DNA from: a virus
Taxonomy: Duplodnaviria; Heunggongvirae; Uroviricota; Caudoviricetes
DNA: 19,945 nucleotides
Virus record (IMG/VR): IMGVR_UViG_2627853844_000002
Reading direction: 5' to 3' (one strand)
Positions 5,025 to 19,945 of this stretch are shown here, piece by piece. The notes beneath the pieces are model-generated. The model was not told the DNA's origin and did not search any database. It was given only the letters and a program-made list of their open reading frames with translations. The position numbers and the translations under genes are program-made. The first letter of the stretch is position 1. Every line of letters starts with the position of its first letter.

Positions 5025-5303
5025 ATGGCACGCAACGCAAAATATTACAATTCTGATAATTCGCCCGTTCTTGCCTGCACGCACGGGCGGTATTCTCACG
5101 CATTCAAGTCTGAATGGTTCCAGCACCCTCCATGCACTGCAGAACAGGCCGAATGGCTGATTCATTCTTACCGCAGGCGCGGGTTCGAGGTTAAGAAAGC
5201 TCTCAGTCTCGACTATCGGCACTGGATAATCTCTGTCAGGCTGCCTTATTCCGAACGCCCACCACGTGCGTCCCGCACTTTCCAGCAACGGATCTGGAGG
5301 TAA
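5025..5303 (+). CDS. Hypothetical protein (92 aa); its stop overlaps the ydfU ribosome-binding site
   Basis: Good SD (GGAGA, 6-nt spacer) before ATG 5025; stop TAA at 5301-5303 sits 1 nt before the ydfU GTG start; no recognisable domain. Confidence 0.4.
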   Translation: MARNAKYYNSDNSPVLACTHGRYSHAFKSEWFQHPPCTAEQAEWLIHSYRRRGFEVKKALSLDYRHWIISVRLPYSERPPRASRTFQQRIWR

Positions 5304-5304
5304 C

Positions 5305-6354
5305 GTGCGGGTATTACTTAGACCTGTTCTGGTGCCTGAGCTTGGGCTGGTGGTCCTTAAGCCGGGCCGTGAATCCATACAGATATTTCATAATCCTCGA
5401 GTGCTGGTGGAACCGGAACCAAAAAGCATGCGTAATCTGCCATCCGGAGTCGTTCCTGCCGTTCGCCAGCCGCTGGCGGAAGACAAAACATTGCTGCCGT
5501 TTTTTAGTAACGAACGGGTGATTCGTGCTGCTGGCGGCGTTGGCGCATTGTCCGACTGGCTATTACGTCATGTTACATCCTGCCAGTGGCCTAATGGCGA
5601 TTACCATCACACTGAAACAGTCATTCACCGTTATGGTACCGGCGCAATGGTGTTGTGCTGGCACTGCGACAACCAACTGCGTGACCAGACATCGGAATCA
5701 CTGGAGCTGCTTGCTCAACAAAATCTGACAGCATGGGTGATTGACGTCATCCGTCACGCAATAAGCGGTACGCAGGAGCGGGAATTATCTTTGGCTGAAT
5801 TATCCTGGTGGGCGGTCTGCAATCAGGTGGTGGATGCACTACCTGAGGCTGTATCGCGTCGTTCGCTGGGATTACCAGCGGAAAAAATCTGCTCGGTGTA
5901 CCGCGAAAGCGACATCGTACCGGGAGAGCAGACCGCCACCAGCATATTGAAACAACGCACAAAAAATCTTGCACCGTTGCCTTACGCCCACCAGCAACAA
6001 AAATCACCACAGGAAAAGACGGTGGTAAGCATCACCGTTGATCCAGAGTCTCCGGAATCTTTCATGAAGCTGCCTAAACGTCGCCGCTGGGTTAAGGAGA
6101 AATACACACGTTGGGTTAAGACACAGCCGTGTGCTTGCTGCGGTATGCCAGCCGACGATCCGCATCATCTGATTGGTCACGGGCAGGGCGGAATGGGAAC
6201 AAAAGCACATGATCTCTTTGTGTTGCCTTTGTGCAGAAAGCATCACAACGAGCTGCATACGGATACAGTGGCATTTGAAGATAAGTATGGCTCCCAACTG
6301 GAGCTGATATTTCGTTTTATCGATCGCGCGCTGGCAATTGGCGTACTGGCGTAA
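5305..6354 (+). CDS. ydfU: YdfU, DUF968-family prophage protein with a C-terminal HNH-like zinc-finger nuclease motif (349 aa from GTG)
   Basis: GGAGG SD then GTG at 5305; C-terminus contains CACCGMPADDPHH...GTKAHDLFVLPLCRKHHNELH (CxxC ... HH ... CxxHH). The ORF track's longer 5266 start is less likely. Confidence 0.7.
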   Translation: MRVLLRPVLVPELGLVVLKPGRESIQIFHNPRVLVEPEPKSMRNLPSGVVPAVRQPLAEDKTLLPFFSNERVIRAAGGVGALSDWLLRHVTSCQWPNGDYHHTETVIHRYGTGAMVLCWHCDNQLRDQTSESLELLAQQNLTAWVIDVIRHAISGTQERELSLAELSWWAVCNQVVDALPEAVSRRSLGLPAEKICSVYRESDIVPGEQTATSILKQRTKNLAPLPYAHQQQKSPQEKTVVSITVDPESPESFMKLPKRRRWVKEKYTRWVKTQPCACCGMPADDPHHLIGHGQGGMGTKAHDLFVLPLCRKHHNELHTDTVAFEDKYGSQLELIFRFIDRALAIGVLA

Positions 6355-7754: not shown

Positions 7755-8054
7755 AAAAATTCCTTAATACTGATAACTTGGCGCACTATACACACGTTCC
7801 TGAAGAAAGCTATAGTTTTTTGATGGGGTTGAAGATGGCTGGATGTCTAAAATAAACATTGCTTCATATGTTCAACTATGCGTTAATGATTGCGTCGGTT
7901 TGAAGAACAGACGATATACGAAGTAGTTTACTAAAGCAGTTCTCATTTCAGGTGTTATTCACTTATTCCTTCTTTGAGTCTCTCCAATTAAGTACGAAGT
8001 CGTTTCTGTTATGCAAACCATTTATGCCGAAAGGCTCAAGTTAAGGAATGTAGA

Positions 8055-8270
8055 ATGTCAAATAAAATGACTGGTTTAGTAAAATGGTTTAACGCTGATA
8101 AAGGTTTCGGCTTTATTTCTCCTGTTGATGGTAGTAAAGATGTGTTTGTGCATTTTTCTGCGATTCAGAATGATAATTATCGAACCTTATTTGAAGGTCA
8201 AAAGGTTACCTTCTCTATAGAGAGTGGTGCTAAAGGTCCTGCAGCAGCAAATGTCATCATTACTGATTAA
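8055..8270 (+). CDS. cspB: Cold-shock protein CspB (71 aa)
   Basis: ORF translation [71 protein letters not shown]. Confidence 0.95.
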
Positions 8271-8381
8271 AATTCATCGCTCGTCTGTATACGATAACGA
8301 AGAAGGCTGATGCCTGAGTAGAGATACGGACAGAGTAGTGAATATTGGATCTCTTTAATAAAAAGTAAGGAGGTCCAATAC

Positions 8382-10579: not shown

Positions 10580-10941
10580 GGTAATATTAAATCGGAACAT
10601 TTACATCGCGGAATGTAAAATTTAAATAAAAAGGACTCTTCCATGAGCCAAAATTCCTGAAATCTTAAGGGTAAGATAAAAGGTCTTAATCAGAATGACA
10701 CGTTTTATTAATAAATAAAGCTATTCTTTCATTGCTGTGTTTTTCTTTACAAAAGTAATCCTTGCTATGGGTGGTTAATCATGCGTTAATGGTGTTCTGG
10801 TTTGTTACAAATTTATCTGAAGCAGTCATTGTTATAATTTTATTATTTGTACCTCTTGAGATTTCCTTGTTGGTTTTTCTCTCTGATATTTTTTTTCGGA
10901 CCATTCTGCCCAAGGGCTAATTTCTTCAAAAGGTAATAATT

Positions 10942-11154
10942 ATGTCTAACAAAATGACTGGTTTAGTGAAATGGTTTAACCCTGAAAAAGGTTTTGGTTT
11001 CATCACGCCGAAAGATGGCAGCAAAGATGTGTTTGTCCATTTCTCAGCAATTCAGAGCAACGATTTCAAAACATTAACTGAGAATCAGGAAGTTGAATTT
11101 GGTATTGAGAACGGACCTAAAGGTCCTGCCGCTGTTCATGTAGTGGCGCTTTGA
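10942..11154 (+). CDS. cspI: Cold-shock protein CspI (70 aa)
   Basis: ORF translation [70 protein letters not shown]. Confidence 0.95.
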
Positions 11155-11353
11155 GGTAGACAATATTACAAACCATATTCACTTTAGATGCCCGTGTTGT
11201 CATGGTTCCCAGTATAGAACATCATCTTTTGATGTTTCTGACATGAATCCTTTCGGGGCAAAATGTATCTTTTGTAAATCAATGATGATTACATTTGATA
11301 ATATTTCACAATACTTAAATGCCAGCCGTCTGTCGTTGGATTTAAAAAAGTGA
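11144..11353 (+). pseudogene. Zinc-ribbon-like reading frame (paralog of the 8634..8804 ORF) lacking any canonical in-frame start before its first Cys cluster; only the C-terminal 36 codons (ATG 11243) are conventionally translatable
   Basis: Frame +1 relative to cspI reads ...FRCPCCHGSQYRTSSFDVSDMNPFGAKCIFCKSMMITFDNISQYLNASRLSLDLKK*; an ATG at 11188 is out of frame by one nucleotide (ATG CCC GTG ... stops after 9 codons). Confidence 0.35.
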
Positions 11354-12589: not shown

Positions 12590-12598
12590 GGCGTAGTC
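12590..12598. repeat. IS10 target-site duplication, left copy (GGCGTAGTC)
   Basis: Identical 9-mer directly abuts both IS10 termini (12590-12598 and 13928-13936). Confidence 0.9.
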
Positions 12599-12644
12599 CT
12601 GATGAATCCCCTAATGATTTTGGTAAAAATCATTAAGTTAAGGT

Positions 12645-12713
12645 GGATACACATCTTGTCATATGATCAAATGGTTTCGCGAAAAATCAATAATCAGACA
12701 ACAAGATGTGCGA
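12645..12713 (-). ncRNA. IS10 antisense RNA-OUT (from pOUT; represses transposase translation); coordinates approximate
   Basis: Placed from established IS10 organisation (RNA-OUT covering roughly IS10 nt 47-115, overlapping the transposase start at nt 108); not derived independently from the sequence. Confidence 0.5.
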
Positions 12714-13914
12714 ACTCGATATTTTACACGACTCTCTTTACCAATTCTGCCCCGAATTACACTTAAAACGACTCAACAGCTTAACGTTGGCTTGCCACGC
12801 ATTACTTGACTGTAAAACTCTCACTCTTACCGAACTTGGCCGTAACCTGCCAACCAAAGCGAGAACAAAACATAACATCAAACGAATCGACCGATTGTTA
12901 GGTAATCGTCACCTCCACAAAGAGCGACTCGCTGTATACCGTTGGCATGCTAGCTTTATCTGTTCGGGCAATACGATGCCCATTGTACTTGTTGACTGGT
13001 CTGATATTCGTGAGCAAAAACGACTTATGGTATTGCGAGCTTCAGTCGCACTACACGGTCGTTCTGTTACTCTTTATGAGAAAGCGTTCCCGCTTTCAGA
13101 GCAATGTTCAAAGAAAGCTCATGACCAATTTCTAGCCGACCTTGCGAGCATTCTACCGAGTAACACCACACCGCTCATTGTCAGTGATGCTGGCTTTAAA
13201 GTGCCATGGTATAAATCCGTTGAGAAGCTGGGTTGGTACTGGTTAAGTCGAGTAAGAGGAAAAGTACAATATGCAGACCTAGGAGCGGAAAACTGGAAAC
13301 CTATCAGCAACTTACATGATATGTCATCTAGTCACTCAAAGACTTTAGGCTATAAGAGGCTGACTAAAAGCAATCCAATCTCATGCCAAATTCTATTGTA
13401 TAAATCTCGCTCTAAAGGCCGAAAAAATCAGCGCTCGACACGGACTCATTGTCACCACCCGTCACCTAAAATCTACTCAGCGTCGGCAAAGGAGCCATGG
13501 GTTCTAGCAACTAACTTACCTGTTGAAATTCGAACACCCAAACAACTTGTTAATATCTATTCGAAGCGAATGCAGATTGAAGAAACCTTCCGAGACTTGA
13601 AAAGTCCTGCCTACGGACTAGGCCTACGCCATAGCCGAACGAGCAGCTCAGAGCGTTTTGATATCATGCTGCTAATCGCCCTGATGCTTCAACTAACATG
13701 TTGGCTTGCGGGCGTTCATGCTCAGAAACAAGGTTGGGACAAGCACTTCCAGGCTAACACAGTCAGAAATCGAAACGTACTCTCAACAGTTCGCTTAGGC
13801 ATGGAAGTTTTGCGGCATTCTGGCTACACAATAACAAGGGAAGACTTACTCGTGGCTGCAACCCTACTAGCTCAAAATTTATTCACACATGGTTACGCTT
13901 TGGGGAAATTATGA
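12706..13914 (+). CDS. IS10 transposase (402 aa)
   Basis: ORF translation MCELDILHDSLYQFCPELHLKRLNSLTLACHALLDCKTLTLTELGRNLPTKARTKHNIKRIDRLL... recognised as IS10 transposase; start at IS10 nt 108. Confidence 0.95.
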   Translation: MCELDILHDSLYQFCPELHLKRLNSLTLACHALLDCKTLTLTELGRNLPTKARTKHNIKRIDRLLGNRHLHKERLAVYRWHASFICSGNTMPIVLVDWSDIREQKRLMVLRASVALHGRSVTLYEKAFPLSEQCSKKAHDQFLADLASILPSNTTPLIVSDAGFKVPWYKSVEKLGWYWLSRVRGKVQYADLGAENWKPISNLHDMSSSHSKTLGYKRLTKSNPISCQILLYKSRSKGRKNQRSTRTHCHHPSPKIYSASAKEPWVLATNLPVEIRTPKQLVNIYSKRMQIEETFRDLKSPAYGLGLRHSRTSSSERFDIMLLIALMLQLTCWLAGVHAQKQGWDKHFQANTVRNRNVLSTVRLGMEVLRHSGYTITREDLLVAATLLAQNLFTHGYALGKL

Positions 13915-13927
13915 GGGGATCTCTCAG

Positions 13928-13936
13928 GGCGTAGTC
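13928..13936. repeat. IS10 target-site duplication, right copy (GGCGTAGTC)
   Basis: Same 9-mer as 12590-12598, directly after the IS10 inside end. Confidence 0.9.
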
Positions 13937-16062: not shown

Positions 16063-16637
16063 TGGCATTCAGAATGAGTGAACAACCACGGACCATAAAA
16101 ATTTATAATCTGCTGGCCGGAACTAATGAATTTATTGGTGAAGGTGATGCATATATTCCGCCTCATACAGGTCTGCCAGCAAACAGTACCGATATTGCAC
16201 CGCCAGATATTCCGGCTGGCTTCGTGGCTGTTTTCAACAGTGATGAGTCATCGTGGCATCTCGTTGAAGATCATCGGGGTAAAACGGTTTATGACGTGGC
16301 TTCCGGCGACGCGTTATTTATTTCTGAACTCGGTCCGTTACCGGAAAATGTTACCTGGTTATCGCCGGAAGGGGAGTTTCAGAAGTGGAACGGCACAGCC
16401 TGGGTGAAGGATACGGAAGCAGAAAAACTGTTCCGGATCCGGGAGGCGGAAGAAACAAAAAACAACCTGATGCAGGTAGCCAGTGAGCATATTGCGCCGC
16501 TTCAGGATGCTGCAGATCTGGAAATTGCAACGGAGGAAGAAATCTCGTTGCTGGAAGCATGGAAAAAGTATCGGGTATTGCTGAACCGTGTTGATACGTC
16601 AACTGCACAGGATATTGAATGGCCAGCACTGCCGTAG
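16062..16637 (+). CDS. tfaQ: Tail-fibre assembly protein (191 aa)
   Basis: ORF translation [78 protein letters not shown]...; start overlaps the stf stop. Confidence 0.85.
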
Positions 16638-17325: not shown

Positions 17326-17641
17326 AGTGAGACTCTATACGAAATTGGTGTTCATATCATAATGCATCTCAGAAAATAATTATGATTATTTTTGTGCATA
17401 TTTGTATGTACACGTTCGAAAATAAACGAATGCGTATGCAACCCCGTAATTTTGGTGAGACCCAAAATCGATTTTGTGAAAAATGGCTTTAACTCGGTTT
17501 GTTTTTCGAGTTCCGGGCGGACTCAAGGAAGAAGAATAGTGTTGCGTGTTATTTTAACCAGATTTCAAGTTGTTTGGTCGTGGAAAAGTGGAGCAAAATG
17601 TTGTTAAAGTGGAAAAATGATAAAAAAGTAAGTTTATTATA

Positions 17642-17875
17642 TTACATTTTACCATTTAAATTTTGGTTGTCTTTAAGAACTGATATCGCTGTTTGTAATA
17701 ATTCTTTGTTATCCAGCCATGATGTTTTCTTTATGTTTCCTTCAATGTAATCAAGCAATGTTCTGGTATTGATAGGTCTTCCCTGTTTTGCTACTTCCAC
17801 TACAGCATCCCCTAGGATAATTCTTACTTCAGGAAGCTGCGCAGGGAACCACTTTAGGGTGTCTTTTGATTTCAT
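17642..17875 (-). CDS. ydfK: YdfK (77 aa), small prophage protein
   Basis: Internal Met of ORF 17642..17908: MKSKDTLKWFPAQLPEVRIILGDAVVEVAKQGRPINTRTLLDYIEGNIKKTSWLDNKELLQTAISVLKDNQNLNGKM; AAGGAAT SD upstream. Confidence 0.7.
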   Translation of the reverse strand: MKSKDTLKWFPAQLPEVRIILGDAVVEVAKQGRPINTRTLLDYIEGNIKKTSWLDNKELLQTAISVLKDNQNLNGKM

Positions 17876-18661
17876 GAAGATATTCCTTAAAATATTATTG
17901 ATTTTCATTGCGATATTGTATGTCTGATTCAGGATATGTTGACTTATACATCGGTTTTGTCTGGGTTATTGGATATGCCAATCCCTAATTTTATTAGAGC
18001 ATGACTAAAAATGCTGAATATGATAAGGAGCGAAGTGATTATCAGTATGCTGTTCATATAGCCTCGAATTAGTAATGTGTTATATATGATATAGTTGACA
18101 ATTTTTATCCTGGGTGTTCTTAAAGTTCGTAGATAAACATTGTCGTTTCAGGTATACAGGAATGCTAACAGGTGGCGGCAAAAATCAGGCGGTTTATGGC
18201 GCAAGCTGAAGTGGCAACTGCAAACTATCTTATGCAGAGACTCTACACGGATTGGGTTTAAAAGTATACATAGATAACAGTTTTTATCTGAAAAAGAAAA
18301 ATATCAAGGTGATATAGCCTATATGCCTTTGATGCGGAGGAATGAATGTGATGGGAGTGATGTATCTGAATAGTTGAAAAACCGCAGACACACCTTATGC
18401 AAGAACGTGCTGCGATTGGCTGGTAAATTTTTCGATAGTGTGAGTATTGAATGATTTCCAGCCGTTCTTGATTTTACGCATAAATCCATGAAAAAACTAC
18501 TTATCTGTTGGGGAGTTTTTTTGGGGCATATATGGGACAGAAATAGGCCCCAGATAGACACTGAGATCGAACTTAGGATGCTTTTTAAAAAAATGCAACT
18601 ATCTGAAAAAACCTAGAAAACGCCAAGGAAACCACAGGATGGGAAAAAACACCTGTGAATT

Positions 18662-19945
18662 ATGGATTTCCAGTTATATTCGCTCGGCGCAGCGTTAGTG
18701 TTTCATGAAATATTTTTTCCTGAATCATCAACGGCAATGGCGTTAATTCTGGCAATGGGAACCTACGGTGCAGGTTATGTGGCGCGTATTGTCGGAGCAT
18801 TTATTTTCGGCAAAATGGGCGACAGAATAGGGCGTAAAAAAGTGCTCTTTATTACCATCACCATGATGGGGATCTGTACCACCTTAATTGGTGTGTTACC
18901 GACCTATGCACAGATTGGTGTTTTTGCACCCATCTTGCTGGTGACGTTGCGTATTATTCAGGGGTTGGGTGCAGGTGCGGAAATTTCCGGTGCCGGTACG
19001 ATGCTGGCGGAATATGCGCCAAAAGGTAAGCGCGGAATTATCTCCTCATTTGTGGCTATGGGAACTAACTGCGGAACCTTGAGCGCAACGGCAATCTGGG
19101 CCTTTATGTTCTTCATTCTCAGTAAAGAGGAACTGCTGGCGTGGGGATGGCGTATACCGTTCCTGGCGAGTGTTGTCGTGATGGTCTTTGCTATCTGGTT
19201 GCGTATGAATCTGAAAGAAAGCCCGGTCTTTGAGAAGGTTAACGACAGTAACCAACCGACAGCAAAACCTGCACCTGCTGGTAGCATGTTCCAGAGCAAA
19301 TCCTTCTGGCTGGCAACAGGGCTGCGTTTTGGTCAGGCGGGTAACTCCGGGTTAATTCAGACTTTCCTTGCAGGCTATTTAGTGCAGACGTTATTGTTTA
19401 ACAAAGCAATTCCAACAGATGCATTGATGATCAGTTCGATTCTCGGCTTTATGACCATTCCGTTCCTTGGTTGGTTATCCGATAAAATTGGTCGCCGGAT
19501 CCCGTATATTATTATGAATACCTCCGCGATTGTGCTGGCATGGCCAATGCTTTCTATCATTGTAGATAAAAGCTATGCCCCGAGCACCATTATGGTTGCA
19601 CTGATTGTGATTCATAACTGTGCGGTGCTGGGATTATTTGCTCTGGAAAACATTACCATGGCAGAAATGTTCGGCTGTAAAAACCGCTTTACCCGGATGG
19701 CTATTTCTAAAGAAATTGGTGGTCTTATCGCTTCCGGTTTTGGTCCTATCCTGGCGGGTATTTTCTGCACCATGACGGAATCCTGGTATCCGATCGCCAT
19801 TATGATCATGGCATATTCAGTGATTGGTTTAATCTCTGCGCTGAAAATGCCAGAGGTGAAAGACCGTGATTTAAGTGCGCTGGAAGACGCTGCGGAAGAT
19901 CAACCGCGTGTTGTAAGAGCTGCGCAACCTTCCAGAAGTCTGTAA
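18662..19945 (+). CDS. ydfJ: MFS transporter (metabolite:H+ symporter family, ProP/ShiA/KgtP-like), apparently N-terminally truncated (427 aa)
   Basis: Many hydrophobic transmembrane segments; the G-x3-D-R-x-G-R-K motif occurs at about residue 50 rather than about residue 90, implying loss of the first one to two transmembrane helices; an in-frame stop lies 2 codons upstream of the ATG. Confidence 0.8.
   Translation: MDFQLYSLGAALVFHEIFFPESSTAMALILAMGTYGAGYVARIVGAFIFGKMGDRIGRKKVLFITITMMGICTTLIGVLPTYAQIGVFAPILLVTLRIIQGLGAGAEISGAGTMLAEYAPKGKRGIISSFVAMGTNCGTLSATAIWAFMFFILSKEELLAWGWRIPFLASVVVMVFAIWLRMNLKESPVFEKVNDSNQPTAKPAPAGSMFQSKSFWLATGLRFGQAGNSGLIQTFLAGYLVQTLLFNKAIPTDALMISSILGFMTIPFLGWLSDKIGRRIPYIIMNTSAIVLAWPMLSIIVDKSYAPSTIMVALIVIHNCAVLGLFALENITMAEMFGCKNRFTRMAISKEIGGLIASGFGPILAGIFCTMTESWYPIAIMIMAYSVIGLISALKMPEVKDRDLSALEDAAEDQPRVVRAAQPSRSL

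Follow-up and report, generated by a model that had tools for sequence, protein, structure and literature searches.

Qin (Kim) is a cryptic prophage of Escherichia coli K-12 that resides in the gene ydfJ. Its integration at the 5′ end of ydfJ has been described as depriving the gene of its promoter and of 28 N-terminal codons (PMC6379469), Qin has been reported to occupy ydfJ in the four laboratory strains W, K-12, B and Crooks (PMC3032704), and the att sequence of the ydfJ prophages has been defined in work that noted the K-12 site as occupied (PMC8112680). The PPydfJ prophages of STEC and EPEC, of which Sakai Sp11 is an example, use the same site in ydfJ and the same core (Nakamura et al., 2021; PMC8112680); they differ in carrying a dinI-like gene and nleG effector genes beside the attachment arm, where Qin has ydfK and ynfT. 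The Rac prophage in ttcA shares with Qin a pin invertase, a ydfK/ynaE gene, an identical YnaM/YnfT protein and, with about 98% identity, some 360 bp of DNA upstream, whereas its att arm and target gene are different. In the Campbell integration of lambda, in which P-O-P′ recombines with B-O-B′, the likeness to Qin lies in the short common core, the P arm on the side away from int, the location of int and xis beside the P′ arm and the repeated candidate arm motifs in both arms. Qin differs from lambda in its core sequence, in its target, which is within a coding gene (that of lambda lies between gal and bio), in a 1-nt indel between the phage and host cores outside an 11-nt identity, and in a P′ arm that overlaps the 3′ end of int.

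In this study, we analysed a stretch of 19,945 nucleotides (the window), which we identify as the Qin prophage carried by a derivative of E. coli K-12. The whole window matches Qin from dicB/DicF to the ydfJ stop codon, and positions 17600–19000 are 100% identical to E. coli K-12 MG1655 (NZ_CP010444), whose annotation over the matching stretch gives ydfK, ynfT and a ydfJ flagged as 'incomplete; missing N-terminus' (a RefSeq pseudogene). Compared with the MG1655 reference, the window shows one mismatch, a 1,329 bp IS10 absent from the reference, and no other difference. Nothing substantive separates it from the described Qin locus apart from the IS10 that it adds between ynfO and ydfO. The interval 17909–18720 is almost certainly attR, the integrase-distal end (P-O-B′ in lambda terms) of this defective lambdoid prophage, joined to host ydfJ. 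The insertion of Qin in ydfJ is real, the integration reading is right and the event has already been published (PMC6379469, PMC8112680, PMC3032704).

Several features elsewhere in the window can be noted in passing. The IS10 (12599–13927; 1,329 bp) contains an Rfam match to RNA-OUT (12644–12713) and a 402-aa transposase ORF (12706–13914), and has a 9-bp target duplication, GGCGTAGTC, on either side (12590–12598 and 13928–13936); since the element is absent from MG1655 NZ_CP010444, the window comes from a strain of K-12 descent with a history of Tn10/IS10. Further Rfam matches at gathering level are found at 175–226, 7894–8286, 10796–11181 and 16405–16603. These are DicF (minus strand), two cspA-type thermoregulator leaders (upstream of cspB and cspI) and IS009 inside tfaQ, all of which are expected in Qin.

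The host gene at the junction is truncated. The ORF ydfJ′ (18662–19945, plus strand) has 427 codons in the ORF list and corresponds to codons 29–455 of an MHS-family MFS transporter, without the first 28 codons and the native upstream region; its ATG at 18662–18664 is the native codon Met29. E. coli 536, which has no prophage here, carries rspA-rspB-ydfJ-ydfI, with a ydfJ of 455 codons directly after rspAB and thus 28 extra N-terminal codons compared with the K-12 ORF. From residue 29 to its end, the 536 product (MDFQLYS...) departs from the K-12 ORF by one residue. An earlier note, made from the DNA alone, had proposed that a prophage integrated into a host transporter gene and displaced its 5′ end, and the intact gene in 536 together with the missing part at the other end of Qin bears this out. 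The particulars on which it relied are likewise correct: TGA (18656–18658) and ATT (18659–18661) precede the ATG, which places an in-frame stop two codons upstream, and the MFS motif GDRIGRKK, regarded as too near the N-terminus, occupies residues 53–60 of the K-12 ORF versus 81–88 of the intact protein. The GC content rises from 33–39% across the spacer between ydfK and ydfJ to 47–52% inside ydfJ.

Family models agree with this picture. In the alignment to TIGR00883 (metabolite:H+ symporter) the K-12 ORF begins at model position 7, whereas the 455-aa protein of 536 begins at position 1 with its residue 23; with the shikimate-transporter model NF007414 the respective starts are positions 37 and 12. 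Because both alignments begin late relative to full-length YdfJ, the ydfJ′ ORF is N-terminally truncated, and with 28 codons missing it lacks a complete N-terminus with the whole first membrane helix. Both forms score as members of the MHS family (TIGR00883, cut-off 443.45 bits): the K-12 ORF reaches 453.5 bits and the 455-aa form 462.9 bits. The converse reading, in which the 427-codon start is native and the 455-codon form is a variant, finds its only support in the fact that the ORF begins with ATG. Against it, the 84 bases that ydfJ′ lacks are found in the same genome at the opposite end of the prophage, where they stay in frame as far as the core, 2,006 genomes have a continuous site, the family models begin at least 23 residues upstream of the K-12 start, and full-length homologues do not share the N-terminus of the K-12 ORF; we give this reading virtually no credence.

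The position of the recombination site follows from a four-way alignment of attP, attR, attL and attB, which places the att core of attR in the window at 18656–18670 (plus strand; TGAATTATGGATTTC). The free phage mEp460 has attP as CACCTG-TGAATT-ATGGATTTC-AAGAGTC, and the window has attR as CACCTG-TGAATT-ATGGATTTC-CAGTTAT; the other Qin end provides attL, GCGCT-TGAATTTATGGATTTC-AAGAGTC, and strain 536 provides attB, GCGCT-TGAATTTATGGACTTC-CAGTTAT. A short core is thus common to all four sites, and the flanks are exchanged as in Campbell integration. Exact identity across the four sequences extends over 11 nt, TTATGGATTTC, and the core can be summarized as TGAAT(T)TATGGATTTC; on the host side it reads TGAATTTATGGA(T/C)TTC, with one extra T compared with the phage. 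The first three bases of the attR core are the in-frame TGA and 18662–18664 within it is Met29. This TGA belongs to the phage attP core and falls in frame because the phage core is one T shorter than that of the host. ARL09/232 and Sp11 carry the same phage-type core, which is therefore a property of attP and not a mutation of K-12. The earlier note had expected the attachment junction within the gap between ydfK and ydfJ, which it gave as about 750 bp; the gap measures 753 nt from the start of the long ydfK ORF (17908) to the ydfJ ATG, and the junction is within the interval, but it takes up only the last 15 bases (18656–18670), overlapping the ATG, and does not lie inside the spacer. A 9-nt repeat, GATTTCCAG, at 18453 and 18665 was considered as a trace of an older att site and was rejected, as a stretch of 821 nt is estimated to contain about one such pair by chance and the flanking sequences differ.

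Free phages supply the undivided form of this site. In mEp460_ev081, HannyBb, Tritos and PhiR42_1, window positions 18058–18673 are present at 98–98.5% identity and are followed directly by integrase, excisionase and exonuclease genes, so that both arms are joined as attP beside int and xis. The mEp460 matches amount to 98.9% on the window side and 98.8% on the integrase side, and the two overlap by 18 nt, in agreement with the '18- or 19-bp att sequence' of ydfJ prophages (PMC8112680). A PCR-derived attP has been published for an O26 PPydfJ (PMC8112680); in the literature on K-12 Qin we found nothing comparable.

The other end of Qin, beside rspB, was located and compared, as the earlier note had suggested, and the two ends share the core. 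It contains the missing 5′ part of ydfJ up to ...GAATTTATGGATTTC, after which the sequence diverges into phage DNA; the first 28 codons of ydfJ have been moved approximately 21 kb by Qin. Next to this junction lies a tyrosine-type recombinase pseudogene (missing its N-terminus), beside an IS2 fragment and 187 bp from rspB, which matches mEp460 int at 98.8%. With its integrase cut short by the IS2 remnant, Qin has lost the ability to excise unaided. Translation of the displaced 5′ end gives a 36-aa chimera, MTIEKHERSTKDLVKAAVSGWLGTALEFMDFKSHAC, composed of 31 YdfJ residues and five phage-encoded residues (KSHAC) from the P′ arm; the ORF spans 22296–22406 on the minus strand of the record of that Qin end (L005), outside the window, with 36 codons. 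The translation is identical to YnfP, a published small protein detected by epitope tagging, and this chimeric 36-aa product may have a function of its own.

The spacer itself is built like an ordinary phage end: ydfK is followed by ynfT, the region upstream of both genes, the P arm of attP and the core. ydfK (17642–17875, minus strand) encodes a 77-aa cold-shock protein, with its RefSeq annotation taken over from NZ_CP010444, where the sequence is 100% identical, and is the last sizeable prophage gene; the 88-aa ORF listed in the earlier note starts at an upstream ATG at 17908. That note saw no convincing ORF in the spacer, a statement that fails on ynfT (17944–18057, minus strand), which is annotated there in RefSeq and encodes a hydrophobic small protein of 37 aa that belongs to the YnaM/YnfT family. 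The ynfT translation matches the family over its full length and exceeds the cut-offs of both PF23676 (91.9 bits; cut-off 27; E = 1.5e-26) and NF041477 (64 bits; cut-off 35; E = 1.1e-17). Its sequence is identical to the published YnaM, and an identical 37-aa sequence was among the small proteins found by chromosomal epitope tagging, under the name ynfQ (PMC6001520). Longer spacer ORFs are 18319–18561 (minus strand; 80 aa; GTG start), 18488–18616 (plus strand; 42 aa) and 18140–18277 (plus strand; 45 aa). The first two were rejected as genes, since they lie within the att arm and carry single-base indels in the ARL09/232 alignment; in HannyBb the ORF from the same ATG runs for 77 aa across the core, so that neither frame nor length is conserved. 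Rfam searches (the whole window at gathering threshold and 17500–18800 at E up to 1) gave nothing credible in the spacer, the best scores being 14–19.5 bits against cut-offs of 44–76.

The non-coding region upstream of ynfT-ydfK (18058 to about 18433, minus strand) presumably holds the promoter and leader of these two genes. Elsewhere, matches to the window from 17600 onward end at 18419 or 18433, with uspF/ompN as neighbours at the Rac position, where homology ends at 18419, or with a methyltransferase gene. Because the matches stop at these points, ydfK, ynfT and approximately 360 bp of upstream DNA constitute one mobile module, which has further copies at the Rac site in ttcA and among lambdoid phages and prophages other than Qin. 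The same break might be taken as the true phage–host boundary, in which case 18434–18655 would be host DNA or left over from an earlier insertion. The Rac-type and other module copies that stop at 18419 or 18433 would fit such a boundary; however, free phages carry 18058–18673 uninterrupted and joined to int and xis, the empty site in 536 has none of the DNA of 18434–18655, and the break at 18419–18433 is a mosaic boundary between phage modules and not a host junction, which makes this placement extremely improbable. The host junction is the core at 18656–18670.

Only one minus-strand promoter-like site (18292–18263), a consensus match, is found upstream of ynfT. Inside the spacer of this site lies the palindrome AGATAA-N6-TTATCT (18272–18289), a putative operator that may serve the ynfT-ydfK unit. 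Related copies of ACA(A/G)TTTTTATC occur at 18097–18109 and, inverted, at 18131–18143. Between ynfT and ydfK, AATATTATTGATTTTCATT at 17891–17909 fits in position a predicted Fur-site cluster (matched by position and by eye); a cluster of 17.1 bits was predicted at the starts of ydfK and ynaE (PMC2189734).

The remaining part of the spacer, 18434–18655 (plus strand), is the P arm of attP, as judged from its conservation with ydfJ prophages and from free phages, where it runs on into the P′ arm, int and xis. The arm is conserved up to 18655 from 18396 in ARL09/232 and from 18522 in Sakai Sp11, which gives a length of approximately 135–260 bp (roughly 220–260 bp in the window), and it is found only in prophages that sit in ydfJ, which are unrelated to one another. 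Its restriction to these prophages makes the P arm the integration-specificity module. One copy of the motif TGGGGCA is at 18522, coinciding with the point from which Sp11 is conserved, and two further copies stand in tandem in the P′ arm, +73 and +84 from the core. From this recurrence and its place at the outer limit of the Sp11-conserved arm, we infer that these copies are candidate arm-type integrase sites, the one in the window spanning 18522–18537 (plus strand; TGGGGCATATATGGGACA). Lambdoid phages and prophages other than Qin have a dinI-like gene (2501–2943 in phage 2H10; 3766–4080 in record L004) with the att arm on one side and either the ydfK-ynfT upstream region or nleG effector genes on the other, so that the place beside attP is a slot for variable cargo.

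These comparisons show the following course of events. A temperate phage resembling mEp460 entered the chromosome when tyrosine-integrase recombination joined its attP core (TGAATT-ATGGATTTC) to the matching sequence at codons 27–31 of ydfJ. Codons 1–28 and the upstream rspAB region were thereby left at the other prophage end, and codons 29–455 were placed behind approximately 600 bp of AT-rich, non-coding phage DNA, with the phage-borne TGA now two codons before Met29. As predicted from the four-way att alignment, precise excision would restore GCGCTTGAATTTATGGATTTCCAGTT and the 455-codon ydfJ. Nothing that we found contradicts the integration model; its weak points touch only the view of ydfJ′ as a dead gene.

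In 536, rspB and ydfJ are 57 nt apart, and this gap shows neither a promoter-like nor a terminator-like site, which makes it probable that native ydfJ is transcribed together with rspAB. The rspAB-ydfI neighbourhood has been associated with the catabolism of sugar acids (L-gulonate/D-mannonate), which are thus candidate substrates of the transporter. Directly after ydfJ and before ydfI, at a point just beyond the end of the window, strain 536 has a strong terminator-like hairpin of 12 pairs and a T run (5298–5325 of the 536 record, L002), and a SELEX-predicted promoter, ATGCCA-17-TTTAAG, lies in the 3′ end of ydfJ at window positions 19847–19875. Together, the hairpin and this promoter indicate that ydfI is probably transcribed independently of ydfJ. 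The SELEX promoters listed as 'ydfI <> ydfK' (PMC3946193) were considered as spacer promoters and discarded, for they map inside ydfJ, at 19847–19875 (plus strand) and 19037–19064 (minus strand).

Cut off from its native upstream region, ydfJ′ would logically require a promoter in prophage DNA for any expression, as the earlier note had argued. A promoter scan, which returned five promoter-like sites versus 4.8 expected by chance, gave no plus-strand sigma-70-like site in 17909–18661, and no AGGA-type ribosome-binding motif occurs within 20 nt of the ydfJ′ ATG. We infer that ydfJ′ is probably poorly expressed or non-functional. A different view is that ydfJ′ is no dead remnant but a selected, working transporter, transcribed from or through prophage DNA and translated from Met29. 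The ORF is uninterrupted in the three occupied strains independently examined (K-12, ARL09/232 and Sakai), 25 of its 26 differences from 536 are synonymous, and the truncated protein is still above the TIGR00883 cut-off. Moreover, ydfJ RNA is detectable in K-12 and is differentially expressed on DicC induction in published data, one paper lists ydfJ among H-NS-regulated genes, and the Keio ΔydfJ strain has been reported as more azithromycin-tolerant. On the other side, besides the missing promoter-like site and ribosome-binding motif, YdfJ′ is without the 22-residue N-terminal tail, the first six TIGR00883 positions and the stretch that aligns to NF007414 positions 12–36, which together indicate that the start of the first membrane helix is gone; the synonymous bias may predate integration, and RefSeq treats ydfJ′ as a pseudogene. 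We consider a working transporter unlikely. In a fuller version, ydfJ′ would be a maintained gene under H-NS control, its transcription would start from the prophage arm, and Met29 would begin a membrane protein with a working or regulatory role; the TGA of the attP core would then act as a conserved block on phage-side translation entering the host gene. This version appears more doubtful still.

Occupancy of the site varies widely in E. coli. Among 5,426 complete genomes, searched with a 400-nt probe spanning the site (at least 80% covered), the continuous, empty site is present in 2,006 (approximately 37%). The K-12 arrangement, ydfK-ynfT-spacer-ydfJ′, is continuous in 1,973 (approximately 36%), which leaves by subtraction roughly 1,400 genomes with neither; ARL09/232 and Sakai Sp11 exemplify other prophages at this site. 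In K-12, a gene-targeting prophage has split ydfJ in two, yielding a small translated chimera, YnfP, and a promoter-less, N-terminally truncated transporter ORF, which many databases and knockout collections still handle as a normal gene. Although the importance of this locus is small beyond correct annotation, the site is not continuous in approximately 63% of complete E. coli genomes, and the functional state of ydfJ therefore varies between strains, which matters for the interpretation of transporter screens in K-12.
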